IMG/VR virus record: IMGVR_UViG_2909303794_000003
DNA: 10,545 nt
Direction: 5' to 3' (one strand)
Source of the DNA: a virus
Lineage: Duplodnaviria; Heunggongvirae; Uroviricota; Caudoviricetes
Below, piece by piece: positions 1 to 10,545 of this stretch (position 1 is the stretch's first letter; every line of letters starts with the position of its first letter). The notes beneath the pieces were generated by a model. That model was not told the origin of the DNA and ran no database searches. It saw only the letters and a program-made list of their open reading frames with translations. Both the position numbers and the translations under genes were made by a program.

Positions 1-378
1 ATGACCGTATCAAAACGTGGCCGTGTGCCAAAAACAATCAAAGAAGCCGTACAAGAGCAGTTCAGTCGCATGGGGGAAAGCTACTATGCGAACATCAAGT
101 GGGCGAAATCAGTTAATGCCCATTACTTCAAGGTCATTCGGGAATCGGATCAGCCAGAACCGATTTTCTACACCTTCTCAGTAATTGATGAAGAGATACA
201 TTATACATATTTTGACGTGAACACCTTTGAAGCAACTCAGCTATCGTTAGCTTGCTCAGAGGATGCGTTCTTTCAATTCATGTTTAGGTGTGATCTACCG
301 TTAGACTTCGATGCATTTACCGAAATTATGCGTTTGATCTCATTGCATGGATTAGATGTCACTGCCTTTTATAAATAA
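1..378 (+). CDS. hypothetical protein (125 aa)
   Basis: ORF from the track, ATG at position 1 and stop TAA 376-378. It begins at the window edge, so the true start could lie upstream. No recognisable catalytic or binding motif. No AGTACT sites inside it. Confidence 0.45.
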   Translation: MTVSKRGRVPKTIKEAVQEQFSRMGESYYANIKWAKSVNAHYFKVIRESDQPEPIFYTFSVIDEEIHYTYFDVNTFEATQLSLACSEDAFFQFMFRCDLPLDFDAFTEIMRLISLHGLDVTAFYK

Positions 379-445
379 GACATTATATCAACTCCTATTT
401 TTGTTAGTCGTGATAAATAAGACTGTAAAAATAGGAGGGTTGATT

Positions 446-625
446 ATGACTTGGCTCAGTAATGTACTCATTGAAGTACTCGCAACTATAATTTATATGT
501 TTGTGCTATTTCCATGTTGGATAGTACTGCATCTTTGTTTTATGGTTTTGGTAGTATTACTGCTACCATTTAAGATTCCAGCTATAAATAGATATGTAAT
601 GACAAAGATGAAACGCCAAAAATAA
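446..625 (+). CDS. small hydrophobic membrane protein (59 aa), two predicted TM helices, basic C-terminal tail
   Basis: Track ORF 356..625, but ATG 446 is preferred because a consensus Shine-Dalgarno AGGAGG (433-438) sits 7 nt upstream. Product MTWLSNVLIEVLATIIYMFVLFPCWIVLHLCFMVLVVLLLPF... is almost entirely hydrophobic and ends RYVMTKMKRQK. Confidence 0.5.
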   Translation: MTWLSNVLIEVLATIIYMFVLFPCWIVLHLCFMVLVVLLLPFKIPAINRYVMTKMKRQK

Positions 626-628
626 ATA

Positions 629-637
629 TGGTATAAT
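629..637 (+). promoter_or_regulatory. candidate sigma70 extended -10 element TGgTATAAT, with a second TATAAT at 643-648
   Basis: Exact TGnTATAAT in the intergenic region between the 59-aa ORF and the RHH-like ORF. No convincing -35, which extended -10 promoters do not need. Sequence only. Confidence 0.3.
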
Positions 638-663
638 ATCACTATAATTCCTCCAATAATTTG

Positions 664-687
664 CCCCAATTATTTGGGGTGCTTTTT
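664..687 (+). terminator. candidate intrinsic terminator or attenuator hairpin
   Basis: CCCCAA (664-669), loop TTAT, TTGGGG (674-679), then TGC and TTTTT (683-687). The T-run is offset 3 nt from the stem, so this is a weaker-than-canonical terminator. Confidence 0.35.
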
Positions 688-729
688 GTGTGGAAGAAAA
701 TCAGAAAAGTTTAACAAAAGGATATTGTT

Positions 730-882
730 ATGAAAGAAAAGAAAACGATTAGTGTTGGAGTGAGATTAAATCCTACACAAGAAGAAATACTAAAATCACT
801 TATAGAATGTGGTAAGGCTACTACGATTAGTTCAGCCATTCAGTATCTGATACATCAGTATGCGATTTTAGGTAGCAAGTAA
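730..882 (+). CDS. small ribbon-helix-helix-like DNA-binding protein (50 aa), putative regulator
   Basis: ORF below the track size cutoff, found by reading: ATG 730, SD AAGGA (718-722) 7 nt upstream, stop TAA 880-882. Product MKEKKTISVGVRLNPTQEEILKSLIECGKATTISSAIQYLIHQYAILGSK has a short N-terminal beta-strand segment (ISVGVRL) followed by two helical segments, the pattern of CopG/Arc/MetJ-type RHH proteins. Fold assignment is inference. Confidence 0.4.
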   Translation: MKEKKTISVGVRLNPTQEEILKSLIECGKATTISSAIQYLIHQYAILGSK

Positions 883-906
883 GGGTTTGGTACTTTCACT
901 TTAGAA

Positions 907-923
907 AAGTACTGGCAGTACTT
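907..923. promoter_or_regulatory. 17-bp perfect palindrome AAGTACTGGCAGTACTT flanked by further GTACTT half-sites (888-893, 932-937); candidate operator
   Basis: Perfect 8-1-8 inverted repeat read directly. It lies 25 bp downstream of the RHH-like gene and 69 bp upstream of the IS2 left end. No T-run follows, so it is not a terminator. Confidence 0.35.
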
Positions 924-991
924 CAGGATGAAGTACTTATTTTCAAGGAAGAAATATGAAGAAGGAAAAAAGAAATGACCTAAAAGGTCAG

Positions 992-1032
992 TAGACTGGC
1001 CCCCTGAATCTCCAGACAACCAATATCACTTA
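992..1032. repeat. IS2 left terminal inverted repeat (IRL), about 41 bp
   Basis: Imperfect inverted match to the right end (shared CTGG..CC..T.T.TCCAGACA.C...TATCACTTAA core). Extent follows established IS2 knowledge. Confidence 0.7.
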
Positions 1033-1082
1033 AATAAGTGATAGTCTTAATACTAGTTTTTAGACTAGTCATTGGAGAGCAG

Positions 1083-1448
1083 ATGATTGATGTCTTAGGA
1101 CCGGAGAAACGCAGACGGCGTACTACACAGGAAAAGATCGCTATTGTTCAGCAGAGCTTTGAACCGGGAATGACGGTCTCCCTTGTTGCCCGGCAACACG
1201 GTGTGGCAGCCAGCCAGTTATTTCTCTGGCGCAAGCAATACCAGGAGGGAAGTCTTACTGCTGTGGCCGCAGGAGAGCAGGTCGTTCCTGCCTCTGAACT
1301 TGCTGCTGCCATGAAGCAGATTAAAGAACTCCAGCGCCTGCTCGGCAAAAAAACGATGGAAAATGAACTCCTTAAAGAAGCCGTTGAATACGGGCGTGCA
1401 AAAAAGTGGATAGCGCACGCGCCCTTATTGCCCGGGGATGGGGAGTAA
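1083..1448 (+). CDS. insC: IS2 transposase OrfA (InsC), 121 aa
   Basis: Product [56 protein letters not shown]... is recognised as IS2 InsC. The track ORF starts at an upstream GTG (1038); ATG 1083 is the known start. Confidence 0.9.
1400..1406 (+). other. A AAA AAG slippery heptamer for programmed -1 ribosomal frameshifting (InsC to InsCD fusion)
   Basis: A6G lies in the InsC frame (gcA AAA AAG) exactly where the InsD frame, which is -1 relative to InsC, opens at 1406. This is the standard IS3-family OrfAB arrangement. Confidence 0.6.
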
Positions 1449-2311
1449 GCTTAGTCAGCCGTTGTCTCCGGGTGTCGCGTGCGCAGTTGCACGTAATTCT
1501 CAGACGAACCGATGACTGGAAAGATGGTCGCCGCAGCCGTCACTCAGATGATACGGATGTGCTTCTCCGTATACACCATGTTATCGGAGAGCTGCCCACG
1601 TATGGTTATCGTCGGGTATGGGCGCTGCTTCGCAGACAGGCCGAACTTGATGGTATGCCTGCGATCAATGCCAAACGTGTTTACCGGATCATGCGCCAGA
1701 ATGCGCTGTTGCTTGAGCGAAAAACCGCTGTACCGCTATCGAAACGGGCACATACTGGCAAAGTGGCCGTGAAAGAAAGCAATCAACGATGGTGCTCTGA
1801 CGGGTTCGAGTTCCGCTGTGATAACGGAGAAAAACTGCGAGTCACGTTCGCGCTGGACTGCTGTGACCGTGAGGCACTGCACTGGGCAGTCACTACGGGC
1901 GGCTTCGACAGTGAAACAGTACAGGACGTCATGCTGGGAGCGGTGGAACGCCGCTTCGGCAACGAGCTTCCGGCGTCTCCAGTAGAGTGGCTGACGGATA
2001 ATGGTTCATGCTACCGGGCTAATGAAACACGGCAGTTTGCCCGGATATTGGGGCTTGAACCGAAGAACACGGCGGTGCGGAGTCCGGAGAGTAACGGCAT
2101 AGCAGAGAGCTTCGTGAAAACGATAAAGCGTGACTACATCAGTATCATGCCTAAACCAGACGGGTTAACGGCAGCAAAGAACCTTGCAGAGGCGTTCGAG
2201 CATTATAACGAATGGCATCCGCATAGTGCACTGGGTTATCGCTCGCCACGGGAATATCTACGGCAGCGGGCCAGTAATGGGTTAAGTGATAACAGGTGTC
2301 TGGAAATATAG
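1406..2311 (+). CDS. insD: IS2 transposase OrfB (InsD), DDE catalytic domain, 301 aa
   Basis: Product ...[37 protein letters not shown]...[50 protein letters not shown]... is recognised as IS2 InsD. Expressed mainly as the InsCD frameshift fusion. Confidence 0.9.
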
Positions 2312-2322
2312 GGGCAAATCCA
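2282..2322. repeat. IS2 right terminal inverted repeat (IRR), about 41 bp
   Basis: ...TTAAGTGATAACAGGTGTCTGGAAATATAGGGGCAAATCCA at the element end. Confidence 0.7.
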
Positions 2323-2356
2323 ACTTGCTTTAGGGGGCTTCCTTAAAGATGCACAG

Positions 2357-2628
2357 ATGAATATTACACTCGTTATCCTGAATCCCTATAACAGTACTGT
2401 ATTGTACTCCATGCTGATGTTCTCAGGATTTGTTGATTACATTCAGGCAGTAGCCGATCCAAATGAAAAAACGAATGAAATGACAGTTTACGTGAATAGC
2501 ATTTATAAGAAGCTGGACAGACAGCCACCACTAATTGCTGCCAATTCAGTATATCAATCTCTCTATAAAGGGGATGAATACTTTAGTTTATTAGGACAGG
2601 TGAATCAGGATCAAACGTGGAGATACAA

Positions 2629-2632
<4 letters not shown>
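2357..2632 (+). CDS. hypothetical phage protein (91 aa), first gene after IS2; possibly a 5'-truncated remnant
   Basis: Track ORF. ATG 2357 has only a weak SD and lies 35 bp from the IS2 right end. Its stop overlaps the start of the next gene (ATGA at 2629-2632), indicating translational coupling into the tail module. The product has no recognisable motif. Confidence 0.4.
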
Positions 2633-6220
<3,588 letters not shown>

Positions 6221-6221
<1 letters not shown>

Positions 6222-6520
6222 TGGCACAGGGTTTACAATGCTGGGATGCATCTGGACGATTAATTGTCGATATTGGTGATTACAACATGCGGTACATGGG
6301 ATCAGTCAATCTTAATGTATCGGCTGGTAGTACTACATCATGGAATGTAGCCTGGTCGGGTATGCGTCCAACGGGTTGGTTGGCAGTAATGCGAGTGAGT
6401 CAGTACTGGAATGAGTTTTACTGTATTCCGGGTACTAACGCTTTCACCGTTCAATATCTTCCAGTGAGTGGCGTTTATGCCCAAACATTAACATTCGATA
6501 TATACAAATATGACGTGTAA
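6221..6520 (+). CDS. hypothetical protein (99 aa), one copy of a repeated ~100-aa domain; likely tail-fibre or receptor-binding accessory
   Basis: Track ORF 6215..6520 starts at a GTG; ATG 6221 overlaps the J stop (TAATG), indicating coupling. It shares the motifs G-x-Q-x-[WY]-[DN]-[AS]-[SA]-G-x-L and C-[IF]-PG with both halves of the next ORF. Confidence 0.55.
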
Positions 6521-6528
6521 GGATCACT

Positions 6529-7176
6529 ATGTCAGGTTTTCAGGTTTACAATTCAGCAGGTGCTCTTACGATAGATTCCGATAATAAATCGGTCGTAATG
6601 AGTTCCGTTAAAGCAATGGGCACACTCTCAGATACAGGGTATTACCTCATTAACAGTGCTTTTGGTAATGGAAGTACGTTGGGGTATCTGCCTCTAAATT
6701 TCTTCCCCAATACGGGACTACGCTGGTTCCAGCTACAGACAAATGGAAAGTACTGTTTTCCCGGCTCGGCAATGTTCGAGGCAGGTTCAGGGCGGTTCAT
6801 GCTCTCCAGTAATACCACGGCTCTTACATCGGGCTATCTCGATGTGTATAACAGTGCTGGAACATTGATCTGGTCTGCTGCCAGTGCGGGTACAATGCCA
6901 CGTATTCAGGGTTTCCTTACCGTGCCATCCTCTCATGATCTCGGTACTGCCTTGACGCTTACGACGAGTTTTGCCGATCCGTGGATATGCATTAGTCAGT
7001 GTCCGGGCAACATATCCGATGATGGCGGCACAGTTGGCTATTCCGGCATTCTCATTAAAAGGAATAGCAGTACTTCATTCTCTTTACAGTATGTGAATAA
7101 GAACCAGAAGGCATATCGACAGGCAATGGGGAACAGCGGATTTCAAATTGCTTTAGCAAGTTTCACTGGTTATTGA
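6529..7176 (+). CDS. hypothetical protein (215 aa), tandem duplication of the same ~100-aa domain
   Basis: SD AAGGA 9 nt upstream of ATG 6529. Internal repeats GFQVYNSAGALTIDSD (N-terminal half) and YLDVYNSAGTLIWSAAS (C-terminal half), plus YCFPGS versus QCPGN, parallel LQCWDASGRLIVDIGD and YCIPGT in the previous ORF. Confidence 0.6.
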   Translation: MSGFQVYNSAGALTIDSDNKSVVMSSVKAMGTLSDTGYYLINSAFGNGSTLGYLPLNFFPNTGLRWFQLQTNGKYCFPGSAMFEAGSGRFMLSSNTTALTSGYLDVYNSAGTLIWSAASAGTMPRIQGFLTVPSSHDLGTALTLTTSFADPWICISQCPGNISDDGGTVGYSGILIKRNSSTSFSLQYVNKNQKAYRQAMGNSGFQIALASFTGY

Positions 7177-7184
7177 TATAAATA
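7177..7184 (+). promoter_or_regulatory. TATAAATA motif (T4-late-promoter-like, or a sigma70 -10 variant) 30 bp upstream of the 7214 start
   Basis: Exact TATAAATA in the short intergenic gap, followed by SD TAAGG (7201-7205) and ATG 7214. The same exact octamer occurs at 370-377 and 583-590 on the same strand. Confidence 0.25.
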
Positions 7185-7213
7185 CTCATAATAACAATAA
7201 TAAGGCATAATGT

Positions 7214-7486
7214 ATGGATTTCGGTACTATTGTTGCTCTTGTTATCGCTGGCCTTGGTTTTCTTTATACGATATTCCGTGACAGTTCTTCTGATACTGAA
7301 GATTTACTCACGCGAGTTTCGCAAATTGAAGCAAAGATACAACTGCACAGTAGCAGTATAGACCGCCTCGAAACAGAGCAGGATGAAATGAAGAAGACAT
7401 TACGTAATCTCGAAGATCAAATTCATCAACTGGATTTGAAGATTGAGCGTATTCTGACAATTCTCGAAAAGACAAAAGGGGCATAA
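7214..7486 (+). CDS. membrane-anchored coiled-coil protein (90 aa); possibly lysis-associated (i-spanin-like or holin-like)
   Basis: One N-terminal TM segment (FGTIVALVIAGLGFLYTIF) followed by a heptad-like charged helix (QIEAKIQLHSSSIDRLETEQDEMKKTLRNLEDQIHQLDLKIERILTILEK). Sits next to the endolysin but on the opposite strand. Function is inferred from architecture only. Confidence 0.55.
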   Translation: MDFGTIVALVIAGLGFLYTIFRDSSSDTEDLLTRVSQIEAKIQLHSSSIDRLETEQDEMKKTLRNLEDQIHQLDLKIERILTILEKTKGA

Positions 7487-7503
7487 TGCCCCTTTGTTAT
7501 TTT
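7474..7503. terminator. bidirectional intrinsic terminator between convergent genes
   Basis: Stem GGGGC (7478-7482), loop ATAAT, GCCCC (7488-7492), followed by TTTGTTATTTT on the plus strand and preceded by AAAA (TTTT on the minus strand). It overlaps the stop codons of both convergent ORFs. Confidence 0.6.
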
Positions 7504-7940
7504 AATTGATTATTCATATCTCTTACCCGGTTTGGCGTTTGCCTGTACCATAATGAATCAACGGACTCACGCCGCACACCATCACGATCTCCCGCCTTTG
7601 CTGCTGCCAGTAGTTTTCTGAATTTACTTACGCCATTCACCCCTAACTGAAAAATCATGATGATCAGATAGTCCTCAATATCGGCAGGAAGAGTACCCAA
7701 ACGTAATGTACTTAATCCTGTCCGGGCAACTGCAATATCTTTATCAAGTAAAGTCTCTGCCTCATTCGGGGATAATCCAGTACTGAAAATTTCCCCTGAT
7801 TTGATTAAATGTCCATACCCGACAGTGCTGAATCCCAATGAGTCAGAGTATGGGAAGAACTTTCCATTACGGAAGTACCCCAATTTTGTCTGATAGGCAA
7901 TCGTGCCTTTATATTCCTTAAGTCTGCTTTTTAAATCCAT
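7497..7940 (-). CDS. endolysin, T4-type lysozyme (glycoside hydrolase family 24), soluble, no signal-arrest-release (SAR) domain
   Basis: PYSDSLGFSTVGYGH matches the phage lysozyme motif (P22 AYSDSRGIPTIGVGH, T4 YKDTEGYYTIGIGH). MIFQLGVNGVSKF and SLWYRQTPNRVRDM match T4 lysozyme MVFQMGETGVAGF and SRWYNQTPNRAKRV. No N-terminal hydrophobic segment. Confidence 0.85.
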   Translation of the reverse strand: MDLKSRLKEYKGTIAYQTKLGYFRNGKFFPYSDSLGFSTVGYGHLIKSGEIFSTGLSPNEAETLLDKDIAVARTGLSTLRLGTLPADIEDYLIIMIFQLGVNGVSKFRKLLAAAKAGDRDGVRRESVDSLWYRQTPNRVRDMNNQLK

Positions 7941-7981
7941 TCACTAAATACCTATATAAATTACATATGGGTATTTAGTGA
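7941..7981. promoter_or_regulatory. 12-bp perfect inverted repeat TCACTAAATACC / GGTATTTAGTGA around a 17-bp AT-rich spacer; candidate divergent promoter-operator
   Basis: Arms at 7941-7952 and 7970-7981. The spacer TATATAAATTACATATG contains TATAAATT. Each arm abuts the start codon of one of the two divergent genes (endolysin ATG ends at 7940 on the minus strand; plus-strand ATG at 7981). Confidence 0.4.
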
Positions 7982-8430
7982 TGAGAATTAATAACAACTG
8001 GACGATGTTCGAACCAGAACAATGGGATATCAAGGAAGTAAATGAAGGTCTGTACTGTTCATTTGTGTACTTAATTGAATTTCCCGAAACGGGGGAGTAC
8101 TACTTCGGGAAGAAGCAGATATATAAAGGTATCAAAGATATTTCAAACCTTAAGGGTACTTCAACGGAAAGCAACTGGCTGGATTATACGGGCAGCAGTA
8201 AAAGTGTAAATGCCATGATTGATTCAGGTATGGAGTACTCAAAAAGGATTCTGTACTGCTTTAAAACTGATGCTGAAGCCACTTTAATTGAAACTGCATT
8301 GATTAGCTATTACGGCTTACATCCCGACAATCTCAATAAAGCCATTCTGTGTAAATCCCGATTGCCAAAAAATCGAATTGAATTGTTCCGGGTGCTACAG
8401 AGTTTGATCGAAATGTTGGGCGTGAGGTAA
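7981..8430 (+). CDS. hypothetical protein (149 aa); weak GIY-YIG-like / T5orf172-like motif
   Basis: Track ORF 7978..8430 starts at a GTG; ATG 7981 is adjacent. GLYCSFVYLIEFPETGEYYFGKK resembles the G-[IVL]-Y ... Y-[IV]-G-K beta-hairpin of GIY-YIG-superfamily domains, but the spacing is longer than canonical and the downstream conserved Arg/Glu are not evident. Low-confidence motif call. Confidence 0.45.
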   Translation: MRINNNWTMFEPEQWDIKEVNEGLYCSFVYLIEFPETGEYYFGKKQIYKGIKDISNLKGTSTESNWLDYTGSSKSVNAMIDSGMEYSKRILYCFKTDAEATLIETALISYYGLHPDNLNKAILCKSRLPKNRIELFRVLQSLIEMLGVR

Positions 8431-8432
8431 AT

Positions 8433-9002
8433 ATGATTAGAGGCAGAATAACAGGGCTGAATAACGCAACAACCTATCTTAATACTACAGGTCAACGTCT
8501 TGGACGTGACTTTCAGAATGAAATAATCAAAAGGTCAAGGGCGTTATCAGCCAAAATGCAAATGGACTTAAACAATGCCGTCGATAAAGGAGCAGTACCT
8601 TTCACTCAGCGTTCCATTCTCTTTATGTACAAGAAAGTTGGTAATGGAGTTCGCAGTACTATTCTCGTGAAGGATCTACAAGCGAAGTACTTATATGACG
8701 TACTTGTTGAGGAAAAAGCCCTTGATAAGTTTGTACCAACGAGTAAGGCACGTCTTGATCGGTTCGGTAACATTGCAGGGTTGAAACGTAATCTATCAAA
8801 TGGGCGTTATAAGGTCATTAAAGGGAAGAATGGTAAAGAGCGATTGATTGATACCAGCCAGAAGAAGAAAGAAAAGCGAGTAATTGGATTACGTGAAAGT
8901 AAGAAACGTAAAATCATTTATGATTTCTATGCAGAAGCAGAGAAGGGGGCAAGACTTGTTCTCGCAGGGATACAGGGATCGTTTGTTATAAAAAAGGGAT
9001 AA
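8433..9002 (+). CDS. hypothetical basic protein (189 aa) with a Lys/Arg-rich C-terminal region
   Basis: SD GAGG 8 nt upstream; start is 3 nt after the previous stop. The C-terminal part (KGKNGKERLIDTSQKKKEKRVIGLRESKKRK) is strongly basic, suggesting nucleic-acid binding. The N-terminal 60 aa loosely resembles the HK97 gp10-like tail-component pattern (RAL...A...AVP...RS); unverified. Confidence 0.5.
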   Translation: MIRGRITGLNNATTYLNTTGQRLGRDFQNEIIKRSRALSAKMQMDLNNAVDKGAVPFTQRSILFMYKKVGNGVRSTILVKDLQAKYLYDVLVEEKALDKFVPTSKARLDRFGNIAGLKRNLSNGRYKVIKGKNGKERLIDTSQKKKEKRVIGLRESKKRKIIYDFYAEAEKGARLVLAGIQGSFVIKKG

Positions 9003-9003
9003 T

Positions 9004-9315
9004 ATGAATTTTGAAGAACACTATGGTGAACTTACGAGTGAGATAACGCTGAATGGTACTATACCAGATGGTAATAGTATGCCAATCAACAAGTGCTTTC
9101 TCGGAAAGAAGTTCCAGAAGCAATTGAAGAAAGCAGATATACAGATTGAGTGCTTTATGAATATCTGCTACGAGAAAAAACAAAGTTTTAAAGATGGTGA
9201 AGTACTCACATGGTCACTACAGGGTGATGAAATGGATGTGTACTTAATCGAAAGTAAAAGGTTATTTGTAAAGGGAAAGCACTTTTGGGGATATTGTGTG
9301 GGGATCATTGAATGA
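9004..9315 (+). CDS. hypothetical protein (103 aa)
   Basis: SD AAGGGA upstream; start is 2 nt after the previous stop; Cys-containing; no recognisable motif. Confidence 0.5.
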   Translation: MNFEEHYGELTSEITLNGTIPDGNSMPINKCFLGKKFQKQLKKADIQIECFMNICYEKKQSFKDGEVLTWSLQGDEMDVYLIESKRLFVKGKHFWGYCVGIIE

Positions 9316-9602
9316 TTGGAATGATAATTGATTTAATCAAAACTGGATTGGGCTTCTTCCAGAAAAAAGAACAAAGCAAACAGGAACTGGACGCACAGAA
9401 CAGTCACGAGCAGAACGAGATCACACTTGAAGAAACACGTAAGGGCTTCACGTGGCGACAGGGTTTAGGCTGGGTACTAACGTTCATCATTCTATGGAAC
9501 TACGTCATTGTGCCAGTACTGGCATTGTGTGGTGTAGTACTTCCCATAGTTCCACTTGATGAAATATGGAAAGTACTGATCATCTTAATCGGTGGGAGTT
9601 GA
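9312..9602 (+). CDS. small membrane protein (96 aa): hydrophilic N-terminal half, two C-terminal hydrophobic segments
   Basis: ATGA start/stop overlap with the previous gene. C-terminal GLGWVLTFIILWNYVIVPVLALCGVVLPIV and IWKVLIILIGG are predicted TM helices. The protein ends immediately after the last helix, unlike a typical holin with a charged C-terminal tail. Its 3' end overlaps the convergent minus-strand ORF by 18 bp. Confidence 0.5.
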   Translation: MIGMIIDLIKTGLGFFQKKEQSKQELDAQNSHEQNEITLEETRKGFTWRQGLGWVLTFIILWNYVIVPVLALCGVVLPIVPLDEIWKVLIILIGGS

Positions 9603-10283
9603 TTTTGTCTCTCTAAACAATACTCGCCATGAAGTAAGCCATGTTGAAGGGAGGATTTGGGTAAGTGCGAAGGCTGGTATGAAACTCAAATTATGAAATT
9701 CCCAATTCTTCTTGCGTGCCATACCACTTACATCTTGACATATGTTAATCATTTTATCGCTAATGATAATAAAGTTGTAGTAATGTGTTATACATTGTTC
9801 AAGTTCTTTAGACTTGTCTGGATGTACTTCAATGTTCCAAACTCGTAATATATCTAATTGCGATTTCAATTTAATCAGATGATCTTTATAATCAGCATGC
9901 AAGTCATTTACCTTAGAGTTTTTGCTTTGGTACTCTTTATCGGTGATGTTAAGATCTTTATTTCCTAACATTTCATACATATCATTGATATAAGTATGTA
10001 ATATTTCCGCCTTTACTTTCGCTTCAATAAAGTAACTGATATAAACGTTTGCTTGTTCAAAACCTTTTTCATTAAGTTTTGAATCTAACCATCTATAAAC
10101 TTTAAAAACTGTGATGAGTGCTATTACTGCCATTATAGTATCCATGATTGCTGATGTAGTAGAGCTATCATATCCATGAAGTAATAGTAAATCGGTGTAA
10201 ATTGGTATTAATGCACCAATAGCAAGACATGCAATATGTGAAAATCTTATTTCATTTCTGATTTTTTTTAAAATCACTTTCAA
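9585..10283 (-). CDS. two-TM membrane protein with a ~160-aa helical cytoplasmic domain (232 aa if the TTG start is used); unknown function, candidate exclusion or abortive-infection effector
   Basis: Track ORF with a TTG start at 10283 (GTG at 10277 is an alternative); AGGGA lies 4 nt upstream of the TTG; the first ATG is at codon 46. Two N-terminal hydrophobic helices (HIACLAIGALIPIYTDLLLL and IMDTIMAVIALITVFKVY). The region is markedly AT-rich (roughly 30% GC by eye) and has no AGTACT sites, unlike the phage backbone. Confidence 0.5.
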   Translation of the reverse strand: MKVILKKIRNEIRFSHIACLAIGALIPIYTDLLLLHGYDSSTTSAIMDTIMAVIALITVFKVYRWLDSKLNEKGFEQANVYISYFIEAKVKAEILHTYINDMYEMLGNKDLNITDKEYQSKNSKVNDLHADYKDHLIKLKSQLDILRVWNIEVHPDKSKELEQCITHYYNFIIISDKMINICQDVSGMARKKNWEFHNLSFIPAFALTQILPSTWLTSWRVLFRETKSTPTD

Positions 10284-10305
10284 AGCATCCCTATGAAATT
10301 ATTGG

Positions 10306-10330
10306 AAAGCCTGTATATAGCACAGGCTTT
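10306..10330. promoter_or_regulatory. 9-bp perfect inverted repeat AAAGCCTGT (7-nt loop) ACAGGCTTT in the gap between the two minus-strand genes
   Basis: Read directly. It lies between the stop of the 69-aa ORF (10336) and the start of the membrane-protein ORF (10283). On the minus-strand transcript it is not followed by a U-run, so an operator or RNA regulatory hairpin is more likely than a terminator. Confidence 0.35.
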
Positions 10331-10335
10331 TATTG

Positions 10336-10545
10336 TTACCAATCCCAATCAATAGTAGTATCCAAATCACGCAAGTTAGTATGTTCTGTGCGAGTCGCTA
10401 CGAGAACAACATCACCAGTTTCTTTCGAAACAATATCAAAAACTTCAATTTCCGTTTGGCCCATTGTACCTTTCGTTCTAAAACTCTTTCTGACGTAAGT
10501 GTATTTTTCTTTTGGATAATTACTTTCAAATAATGCTTCATTCAT
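10336..10545 (-). CDS. hypothetical small protein (at least 69 aa), upstream partner of the two-TM protein
   Basis: Track ORF. Its ATG is the last three bases of the window, so the real N-terminus and RBS cannot be confirmed and the gene may extend beyond the window. Product (…GQTEIEVFDIVSKETGDVVLVATRTEHTNLRDL…) looks like a real mixed-charge protein, unlike the low-complexity plus-strand ORF that overlaps it. Confidence 0.4.
   Translation of the reverse strand: MNEALFESNYPKEKYTYVRKSFRTKGTMGQTEIEVFDIVSKETGDVVLVATRTEHTNLRDLDTTIDWDW

Follow-up and report, generated by a model that had tools for sequence, protein, structure and literature searches.

Positions about 390-991 of the window (the whole 10,545-nt stretch that was analysed) contain the control region on the integrase side of a serine-integrase prophage, which occupies the E. 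coli yeaG-mipA site. We regard it as unremarkable regulatory DNA of a phage, with elements that are all of familiar kinds. We think that it is best read as two independent units, a membrane-protein gene and the start of a short operon that runs rightward, and we give this reading about an even chance of being right. The first unit (446-625) would resemble a moron and encode a small membrane protein, with its ribosome-binding site locked in a conserved hairpin. The second would start with an extended -10 sigma-70 promoter at 629-637, followed by a leader that contains a conserved intrinsic terminator (662-688), a gene for a ribbon-helix-helix (RHH) protein that would be the DNA-binding regulator of the operon, a stretch of mRNA between cistrons in which three stem-loops (H1, H2, and H3) are conserved, and finally an HNH/AP2-like gene. 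The features are, by position in the window:

392-437, plus strand: hairpin sequestering the Shine-Dalgarno sequence of the hydrophobic ORF; perfect 11-nt arms, CTCCTATTTTT/AAAAATAGGAG, and a loop with GATAAATAAG
446-625, plus strand: gene for a 59-aa hydrophobic (membrane-type) protein with a basic tail, MTWLSNVLIEVLATIIYMFVLFPCWIVLHLCFMVLVVLLLPFKIPAINRYVMTKMKRQK; an ORF with AGGAGG 7 nt upstream
608-637, plus strand: sigma-70-like promoter; weak -35 ATGAAA (608-613), 18-nt spacer, extended -10 TGGTATAAT (629-637)
643-654, plus strand: second TATAAT (643-648), then a conserved (T)TCCTCC/ATCTCC box (CTCC at 651-654)
662-688, plus strand: intrinsic-terminator-like hairpin in the RHH leader, TGCCCCAA-ttat-TTGGGGTG (662-681) and CTTTTTG (T-run 683-687)
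689-729, plus strand: A-rich conserved leader; GTTTAAC at 709-715, Shine-Dalgarno sequence AAGGA at 718-722
730-882, plus strand: gene for a 50-aa RHH DNA-binding protein (predicted)
887-915, plus strand: stem-loop H1; core arms GTACTTT (890-896) and AAAGTAC (906-912), loop CACTTTAGA
907-923: 17-bp palindrome made of the H1 3' arm and the H2 5' arm, not a conserved unit
917-937, plus strand: stem-loop H2, AGTACTTCA-GGA-TGAAGTACT; perfect 9-nt arms (917-925/929-937), loop region CAGGAUG
941-954, plus strand: small stem-loop H3 (TTTC-AAGGAA-GAAA), whose loop carries the Shine-Dalgarno sequence for the gene that follows
956-991, plus strand: start (12 codons, MKKEKRNDLKGQ) of an HNH/AP2-like gene of 166 aa, interrupted by the insertion sequence
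992-2322, plus strand: IS3-family element, identified as IS2 from its ends and its 1331-bp length, without a target-site duplication

The prophage in the window is truncated by an IS2-associated deletion. The window matches one related locus (L003) exactly up to ...GGTCAG, where the insertion sequence starts. The terminal inverted repeats of IS2 were found, with flanks GTCAG and ACTTG, and copies of IS2 are present in 4897 of 5426 E. coli genomes. The interrupted gene is intact in L003 and L001, where it matches PHROG 953 'HNH endonuclease' (E 3e-37).

The gene order of the control region is conserved beyond E. coli. Recombinase, a gene of ~125 aa, small hydrophobic ORF, hairpin, RHH gene, and HNH-like gene follow each other in E. 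coli, Citrobacter, Cedecea, and Enterobacter loci. The metagenomic locus L010 keeps the recombinase, hydrophobic ORF, hairpin, RHH gene, and HNH-like gene, and IMG/VR fragments keep the hairpin and RHH gene, usually with the HNH-like gene too. The RHH operon apparently has three genes only and is followed by a gap of 640-800 nt. No near-identical DNA was found in phage and plasmid collections, and complete E. coli genomes contained a single, diverged relative (AREA_C483). A profile built from 49 RHH relatives was too diverse for scanning loci, and a 6-sequence alignment was used instead.

The hairpin at 662-688 belongs to the leader of the RHH gene, because in 18 distinct relatives its stem always ends 45-54 nt before the RHH start codon. 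The hairpin (-11.3 kcal/mol) is a G+C-rich stem-loop followed by a U-run, the form of an intrinsic terminator, and there are three terminator-like sites in 300-1000 compared to 0.2 expected. Across the 18 loci the stem keeps a CCCC/GGGG core with compensatory changes in the flanks (CCCCAA/TTGGGG, ATCCCCA/TGGGGAT, ACCCTAACG/TGTTAGGGT, GCCCCGT/ACGGGGT, and ACGCCCCT/AGGGGCGT); the T-run is weak in L030 (TTCTTC). An alignment of 13 lineages gave the leader consensus TGGGG..CTTTTT..GT..AAAAAAT..AAAA.GTT.AACAA.AGGAA. Upstream of the hairpin, a TCCTCC-type box is found 10-22 nt before the stem in all lineages, and this box can pair with GGAAGAA after the T-run, an outer stem that is lost in L024 and L028.

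The predicted promoter precedes this hairpin. The sequence at 629-637 has the extended -10 form (TGnTATAAT) for which a -35 is dispensable, and it is the only sigma-70-like site on the plus strand in 300-1000. The same motif or a near variant lies 5' of the hairpin in most lineages (8 of ~12): TGGTATAAT in L001, L012, and L027, TGCTATAAT in L007, TGTTACAAT in L030, and TGATATAAT in L002. The initial annotation had described an extended -10 followed by a hairpin with a T-run and suggested an attenuator or leader structure. Both elements are present and their order is conserved among relatives; the fixed distance to the RHH start bears out the placement in a leader, and a role in attenuation is plausible from the sequence. 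Transcripts from the 629-637 promoter would have to pass the leader terminator, which would damp or gate expression of the RHH operon, and the terminator may also insulate the operon from integrase-side transcription.

It is possible, though rather unlikely in our view, that the hairpin only terminates the transcript from the integrase side or from the moron, with TGGTATAAT being either a chance match or the start of a terminated RNA of ~45 nt, and with the RHH gene expressed by leaky read-through. The hairpin has the shape of a canonical terminator, its stem lies between an A-run and a T-run in several lineages, the pattern of bidirectional terminators, and the hydrophobic gene of L010 and L020 is itself preceded by a terminator, the layout of a moron. 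Promoter-like matches in this AT-rich DNA were also not enriched over shuffled sequence (two found and 3.6 expected). However, the interval to the RHH start is fixed while the stop codon upstream is 37 to ~220 nt away, about a six-fold range, the hairpin persists in L019 and L030 where the preceding hydrophobic ORF is missing, and the extended -10 is conserved 5' of the hairpin even at saturated synonymous divergence (L027 and L030). In addition, the RHH gene has no alternative promoter downstream of the hairpin: the interval up to its ATG contains no acceptable -10 and no room for a promoter.

Three other ideas about this segment were tried and rejected. An anti-terminator pairing of 650-661 with 668-679 was not the minimum-free-energy fold and was not conserved in L001 and L002. 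An anti-Shine-Dalgarno small RNA (UUCCUCC against the ribosome-binding site of the hydrophobic gene) would form only 5-6 bp, and the box is TTCTAC in L001. A resemblance of GUUUAACAA to boxA/nut failed on the absence of the GCUC core.

The 50-aa product of 730-882, an ORF missed by the ORF track and called RHH-like in the initial annotation, has an RHH fold by prediction. Its predicted monomer has the strand-helix-helix topology of the RHH superfamily in about 45 residues. The protein itself had no match above cut-off to a curated RHH model or to any other Pfam family, and no meaningful direct family match in PHROGs, NCBIfam, PADLOC, or PDB sequences. The link to the superfamily is transitive: among 49 relatives connected by HMMER, 11 match RHH_1 (best E 3.2e-7), three are NikA-like, and one matches RHH_7. 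Only its fold and its place in the operon point to a regulatory role. The 50-aa and 59-aa ORFs are beyond chance, because dN/dS against relatives ranges over 0.13-0.31 for the two ORFs (0.22-0.31 for the 59-aa ORF), indicating purifying selection.

The repeats at 890-937 are more likely mRNA elements than an operator, judging from sequence comparisons. We read H1-H3 as mRNA elements because there is no promoter in this interval and because the G·U pairs of the stems fit only plus-strand RNA (L020 and L027, and U-A to U·G changes between L001 and the window). Pairing was maintained with altered sequence in all three stems, as read by eye and script from about 6-10 lineages, with the caveat that palindromic protein sites can co-vary as well. 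H1 is ATACTTT/AAAGTAT in L012, L019, and L027, and GTTACTT/AAGTAAC in Citrobacter; its loop is conserved, and no complementary copy of the loop CACTTTAGA was found. H2 is GTACTTCAA-GGA-TTGAAGTAC in L010, GTACTAATCAA-GGA-TTGATTcAGTAC in L021, and, with G·U pairing, GGTGACA-GGA-TGTTACC in L027, and there is a U·G in L020. Its loop is GGG in L004 and L015, and the T-run after it is not conserved. H3 has the stems UUUCA/UGAAA, AUAUGA/UUAUAU, AUAUA/UAUAU, and AUAUC/GAUAU. The three stem-loops would work at the RNA level and set how well the HNH-like cistron is translated or how stable it is. A mini-ORF from the ATG at 928 was rejected, being out of frame and not conserved.

We think it unlikely that the inverted repeats with GTACT at 890-937 are a DNA operator bound by the RHH protein, which would either repress or roadblock the downstream gene or regulate its own. 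The initial annotation had placed such an operator at the 907-923 palindrome. An inverted repeat is indeed there (AAGTACTG/CAGTACTT at 907-914/916-923), with further GTACT copies at 890 and 933, but it is degenerate in L001 (AGGTACTAACAGTACTT), L012, and L019 (AAGTATTAGCAGTACTT) and absent in Citrobacter, L007, L027, and L010. The conserved units are two stem-loops, and the conserved repeat is the perfect 9-bp inverted repeat at 917-925/929-937, which had been overlooked. RHH proteins do bind short repeated or inverted half-sites; H2 as DNA is a palindrome of 21 bp, as long as the Arc operator; E. coli, Citrobacter, L010, L020, and L021 all keep GTAC at the outer ends of H2; and the RHH variant and the H1/H2 variant move together across a mosaic joint between the window and L007. 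Against this, RHH operators have half-sites that overlap or adjoin a promoter. No sigma-70-like site was found in 883-955 or in the matching interval of L004, and 600-660 has no inverted repeat other than the hairpin flank. The GTACT spacings (19, 9, and 15 bp) have no helical phasing, and the G·T positions in L020 and L027 break DNA symmetry while keeping RNA pairing. Nor do the repeats track the DNA-reading strand of the protein. The window, L007, and L021 share KKTISVGVRL and have unlike repeats. L020, L023, and L027 share the outward residues of the beta-strand (x, G, G, R), yet have AGTACTTCAA/TTGAAGTGCT, no intergenic region, and GGTGACA/TGTTACC, respectively.

The prophage-wide enrichment of AGTACT is real. 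There are 32 copies compared to 2.2 expected, spread evenly over codon phases, with none in the insertion sequence or the host flanks, and the word is enriched in all relatives, with a 7-12-fold enrichment common to the whole clade. A literature search for AGTACT in phages returned nothing relevant. The GTACT cluster at 890-937 is not significant because, with 32 copies in 9214 bases outside the insertion sequence, three sites within 24 bp somewhere have P = 0.086, and a similar cluster is present at 9515-9577. These numbers favor the view that the cluster is a local case of the AGTACT/GTAC enrichment, with the word making up the H1 and H2 stems by coincidence, and that a genome-wide reader (possibly the RHH protein or another phage protein) would also act there. 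We nonetheless consider that view improbable: H2 of L027 (GGTGACA/TGTTACC) and H1 of Citrobacter (GTTACTT/AAGTAAC) pair without AGTACT, so that structure is conserved rather than the word, and L021, with the same RHH beta-strand as the window, has only three AGTACT in 4.1 kb.

Equally doubtful, to our minds, is a broader scheme in which the rightward genes are gated by premature termination, as in P4-like immunity or Q/put-like antitermination, with the CTCC box and hairpin as a cis-acting RNA site and the RHH protein or another factor reading AGTACT genome-wide. No CI/Cro-type repressor was recognised in the parts of the prophage clade that were seen.

The 59-aa ORF at 446-625 was present as the initial annotation described and is best placed in a unit of its own. 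Proteins of this kind form 26 clusters in Enterobacteriaceae in which Y17, P23, L28, and P41 are invariant, some relatives have an in-frame 12-bp duplication, and AF2 predicts a single long helix (pLDDT 83). There was no match in Pfam, PHROG, NCBIfam, or PADLOC, and nothing meaningful among PDB sequences. The hairpin over its Shine-Dalgarno sequence has a folding energy of -19.6 kcal/mol (z = -2.9) and is kept with altered stems in relatives (CTCCTGTATCT/AGATACAGGAG in L022; CTCCTAT/ATAGGAG in L001).

That this protein is a toxin or superinfection-exclusion protein, in a type I toxin-antitoxin or RHH-repressed module, seems to us highly improbable, even though it is small, hydrophobic, and basic-tailed with its Shine-Dalgarno sequence in a conserved hairpin, like many type I toxin mRNAs, and although other lineages have non-homologous small hydrophobic ORFs at the same place. 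No conserved gene for an antisense antitoxin RNA was found: the sole promoter-like site on the minus strand (514-485) has a -10 that is not kept in L001 or L007, and no minus-strand terminator is evident. The earlier proposal that the locus is a toxin-type or exclusion module with an autoregulating RHH protein does not fit the arrangement of the genes, in which the terminator stands between the hydrophobic gene and the RHH unit. Moreover, the RHH unit persists in L019, which lacks the gene, and in L027 and L023-29, which have unrelated small hydrophobic ORFs in its place, and there is no operator-like repeat near the 5' end of the ORF. A type II antitoxin role is ruled out because the RHH protein, a bare 50-aa domain, has no C-terminal toxin-binding tail; the gene downstream is HNH/AP2-like and is replaced or absent in L023-L030.

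Our analysis amends the annotation of a prophage region that recurs in E. coli, adding an unannotated gene for a small membrane protein, an RHH subfamily, and four conserved RNA hairpins. The bare RHH proteins are a new subfamily by sequence, with 68 representative clusters of which most have no Pfam hit. The analysis also provides a testable layout for how a little-studied group of serine-integrase prophages may gate the operon near its integrase. Since the elements are all of familiar kinds, the wider value is modest; the clade-wide AGTACT enrichment is the most unusual feature nearby and merits its own follow-up.

The control region resembles several known systems. A constitutive-looking strong promoter with an intrinsic terminator ~20-60 nt further on, at the head of a rightward operon, is found in lambda pR'-tR' (Q), P4 PLE immunity, and HK022 put, and the window also has a -10-like repeat in the initially transcribed region (643-648). 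In contrast to those systems, we identified no component like Q, N, or CI RNA here, and the operon seemingly ends after three genes at the long gap. A fixed sigma-dependent pause is also disfavored by the distance between the first and second -10, which varies from 11 to ~45 nt among lineages. The RHH protein is a small regulator like Arc and Mnt (P22 immI) and the CopG-type plasmid repressors; it differs from them in having no sequence match above any Pfam cut-off, and here no palindromic operator overlaps the promoter and a terminator sits in the leader. The hydrophobic gene is like phage morons and type I toxin mRNAs in being a small ORF near the integrase, with its own terminator after it and its Shine-Dalgarno sequence paired with an upstream arm, and unlike them in having no conserved antisense RNA promoter, known toxin family, or evidence of toxicity.

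The host repressor CsrA is one specific candidate for a protein that might act on H2 and H3. CsrA recognizes GGA in hairpin loops and can bridge two sites 10-63 nt apart (PMC7652899). An Rfam search returned nothing near threshold, with a weak CsrC-like match at 886-1000 falling far below it (16 vs 279 bits). Compared to the SELEX consensus RUACARGGAUGU in a weak hairpin, the 9-bp stem of H2 is far more stable than the typical 4 bp or fewer, the ACA and GU of the consensus are only partly present (ACA in Citrobacter only, ACACGGAUGA), and L004 and L015 have the GGG loop. The likeness to CsrA/RsmA sites such as the glgC leader and the CAGGAUG repeats of CsrB is in the arrangement: H2 presents CAGGAUG with its GGA (926-928) at the tip of the hairpin, a second GGA (947-949) lies 21 nt downstream in the H3 loop, overlapping the Shine-Dalgarno sequence and within the bridging range, and both are kept in E. 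coli, Citrobacter, L010, L020, L021, and L027.

The gene for the small RHH (ribbon-helix-helix) protein lies in a conserved arrangement. Gene order was identical, with all genes on one strand, in relatives from E. coli (L001, L003-L006, L013), Citrobacter koseri (L007-L009) and Cedecea (L012): a large serine recombinase gene, a ~125-aa gene, the small hydrophobic ORF and a promoter-like site, then a hairpin ending in a T-run and the 50-aa ORF, followed by a ~166-aa gene (HNH-like), a ~155-174-aa gene, and a gap of 640-800 nt. The small hydrophobic ORF, hairpin, and 50-aa ORF followed in the same sequence in Enterobacter (L002) and metagenomic L010, and 16 IMG/VR fragments (L015-L030) supplied further lineages. 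The features in the window are:

446-625: 59-aa hydrophobic ORF; 26 homologous clusters, all from Enterobacteriaceae, none named
629-637, + strand: extended -10 TGGTATAAT of a sigma-70-like site with -35 ATGAAA, the only one on the + strand in 300-1000
662-681, + strand: terminator-like leader hairpin, T-run at 683-687
730-882: 50-aa RHH ORF; dN/dS 0.13-0.29
890-912: stem-loop H1, GTACTTT-cactttaga-AAAGTAC; variants ATACTTT/AAAGTAT and GTTACTT/AAGTAAC
917-937: stem-loop H2, AGTACTTCA-GGA-TGAAGTACT
941-954: H3, a small hairpin with covarying stems, its loop presenting the next gene's Shine-Dalgarno sequence
992-2322: IS3-family element, 1331 bp, with terminal inverted repeats

The gap was free of ORFs in all intact relatives (L001 9370-10052; L003 11317-12056; L007 7285-8091) and could hold an origin, a pac or cos site, or an RNA gene. 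The N-termini of the 125-aa protein (window 1-378; MTVSKRGRVPK) and the 174-aa protein (L001 8846-9370; MTKKKEPHEIKKRGRKPKK) look like AT-hooks, and a weak Lsr2 DNA-binding match (E 0.04) was also seen.

The 50-aa protein is related to RHH proteins, as the initial annotation had proposed. A HMMER search of 1.84 billion representatives found 68 relatives, all of 39-73 aa except one of 207 aa. Among the 49 relatives scanned, 11 matched Pfam RHH_1 (best E 3.2e-7), three matched NikA-like, and one matched RHH_7; the window protein itself matched none of these three families. We rejected a type II antitoxin identity, as the protein is a bare RHH.

Transcripts of the RHH gene must cross the leader hairpin. 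A conserved stretch of 45 nt separates the hairpin from the RHH ATG and contains no credible promoter, making the hairpin a leader element. Among 18 distinct hairpin sequences, the CCCC/GGGG core and the T-run were kept and the flanking pairs changed in a compensatory manner (CCCCAA/TTGGGG, ATCCCCA/TGGGGAT, ACCCTAACG/TGTTAGGGT, GCCCCGT/ACGGGGT, ACGCCCCT/AGGGGCGT). The distance from the end of the stem to the RHH ATG was 45-54 nt in all cases, that to the upstream stop codon varied from 37 to ~220 nt, and the hairpin was retained even in loci that lack a hydrophobic ORF ahead of it. Most lineages, including L027 and L030, which have reached synonymous saturation against the window, have the window's extended -10 or one nearly identical to it on the 5' side of the hairpin, and a conserved box, (A/T)TCTCC or TTCCTCC, lies 10-22 nt ahead of the stem in all lineages. 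The fixed spacing, compensatory stems, and recurring -10 bear out the proposed promoter-then-hairpin leader. We infer that the hairpin attenuates or gates the RHH operon and also shields it from integrase-side transcription.

Two other observations concern this segment. The 18-mer TATAAATAGATATGTAAT is coding in the window (583-600) and identical in the distant L010 (3696-3713), where it is non-coding and directly before the CTCC box and hairpin, which suggests a DNA-level element. Between window 446-882 and L007 5729-6153, synonymous divergence is 0.43 for the hydrophobic ORF but 1.84 for the RHH ORF, on either side of a nearly identical leader, indicating a recombination (mosaic) joint near the RHH start.

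The palindrome at 907-923, previously read as an operator, is the 3' arm of H1 beside the 5' arm of H2. Degenerate forms of it occur in L001, L012, and L019, and Citrobacter, L010, and L027 lack it, whereas H1, H2, and H3 were all conserved (H2 variants: GTACTTCAA/TTGAAGTAC, GTACTAATCAA/TTGATTcAGTAC, GGTGACA/TGTTACC). We therefore set the operator aside and favor RNA elements, because loops are constant while stems vary, G·T positions (L020, L027) pair solely as + strand RNA, T-A pairs change to T·G between L001 and the window, no promoter was found in 883-955, and the repeats do not follow the outward-facing residues of the RHH strand. Lacking a conserved T-run on its 3' side, H2 does not qualify as a general terminator. 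In L023-L029, the hairpins and HNH-like gene are replaced by a different gene (MKTIRTNRKNLNK...KVKFINLTF...), joined to the RHH gene by a TATGA overlap. L030 has a monocistronic RHH gene, with a strong terminator and three copies of CAGTACTG behind it.

AGTACT was indeed over-represented, with 32 copies in the window versus about 2.2-2.9 expected. Across the prophage clade (window 1-991 and 2323-10545; L003, L004, L010, L015-L030) enrichment was 7-12x for AGTACT and 2-3.4x for GTAC; AGTACT was enriched in all relatives and other NGTACN palindromes were not. There were no copies in the IS or the host flanks, and codon phases were even (9/11/9). Three copies within 24 bp are not significant given the window-wide density (P = 0.086). 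L021 has the same RHH strand as the window, yet few AGTACT sites, which does not favor the RHH protein as a genome-wide reader of this motif. A second cluster (9512-9577; three copies in 62 bp, including the 12-bp palindrome GCCAGTACTGGC) lies where ORF 9312-9602 encodes its C-terminal part. The related AREA_C483 prophage has a methyltransferase gene close to its right end (L014 24640-25350).

The 59-aa ORF is under purifying constraint (dN/dS = 0.22-0.31), with Y17, P23, L28, and P41 invariant, an in-frame 12-bp duplication in some strains, and one long helix predicted by AF2. A perfect 11-bp hairpin (392-402/427-437), which recurs in relatives with changed stem sequences, holds its AGGAGG in the 3' arm. 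Hydrophobicity and a sequestered ribosome-binding site are consistent with restrained synthesis of the protein. The suggested toxin or exclusion module nevertheless fails: the sole antisense promoter-like site is not conserved, a terminator stands between the 59-aa gene and the RHH unit, the protein has no defense-system match, and the RHH unit can do without the gene, whose position is empty in L019 and occupied by unrelated small hydrophobic ORFs (27-49 aa) in L023-L029, including L027. In L014 (3499-3910; NZ_CP123310.1, AREA_C483), RefSeq annotates the RHH homologue and omits the conserved hydrophobic ORF (3599-3772). The T4-late-like word (T/G)ATAAATA occurs five times on the + strand (370, 412, 583, 6095, 7177) and never on the - strand of the window. 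It lies 26-37 nt upstream of where the hydrophobic ORF, ORF 7214, and, for the copy at L004 17679-17716, the small terminase gene start; at the first and last of these it is in a hairpin loop with the Shine-Dalgarno sequence in the 3' arm, and may be a promoter within an insulating hairpin.

The window, phage-like DNA of ~40% G+C, is what remains of a prophage after an IS-associated deletion. Judged from its ends and length, the IS3-family element is IS2, present in 4897 of 5426 complete E. coli genomes. It fuses codon 12 of the HNH-like gene (start at 956) straight to tail, lysis, and accessory genes, and terminase genes lie ~9 kb past the 50-aa ORF in intact relatives, which implies loss of the early, terminase, and head region. 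The junctions (987-991, GTCAG; 2323-2327, ACTTG) have no 5-bp target duplication. Phage and plasmid collections contained nothing near-identical to the left flank (1-991), and complete E. coli genomes yielded a single diverged match, strain AREA_C483. The exact 50-aa protein is present on many E. coli contigs, where yeaG and mipA flank the element, whose first gene encodes a large serine recombinase of 644 aa.

CsrA is no more than a candidate regulator of the H2/H3 segment. H2 reads CAGGAUG, the CsrB repeat, and 886-1000 gave a sub-threshold CsrC match. The loop GGAs of H2 and H3 are 21 nt apart, within the CsrA bridging range (PMC7652899). However, the H2 stem is unusually stable for a CsrA site, the consensus ACA is mostly lacking, and the loop is GGG rather than GGA in L004 and L015. 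Based on these comparisons, we conclude that what the initial annotation observed is largely real, its RHH and leader readings standing and its operator and toxin-module readings falling, and that the region is a well conserved, conventional prophage control region whose parts are new members of familiar kinds.
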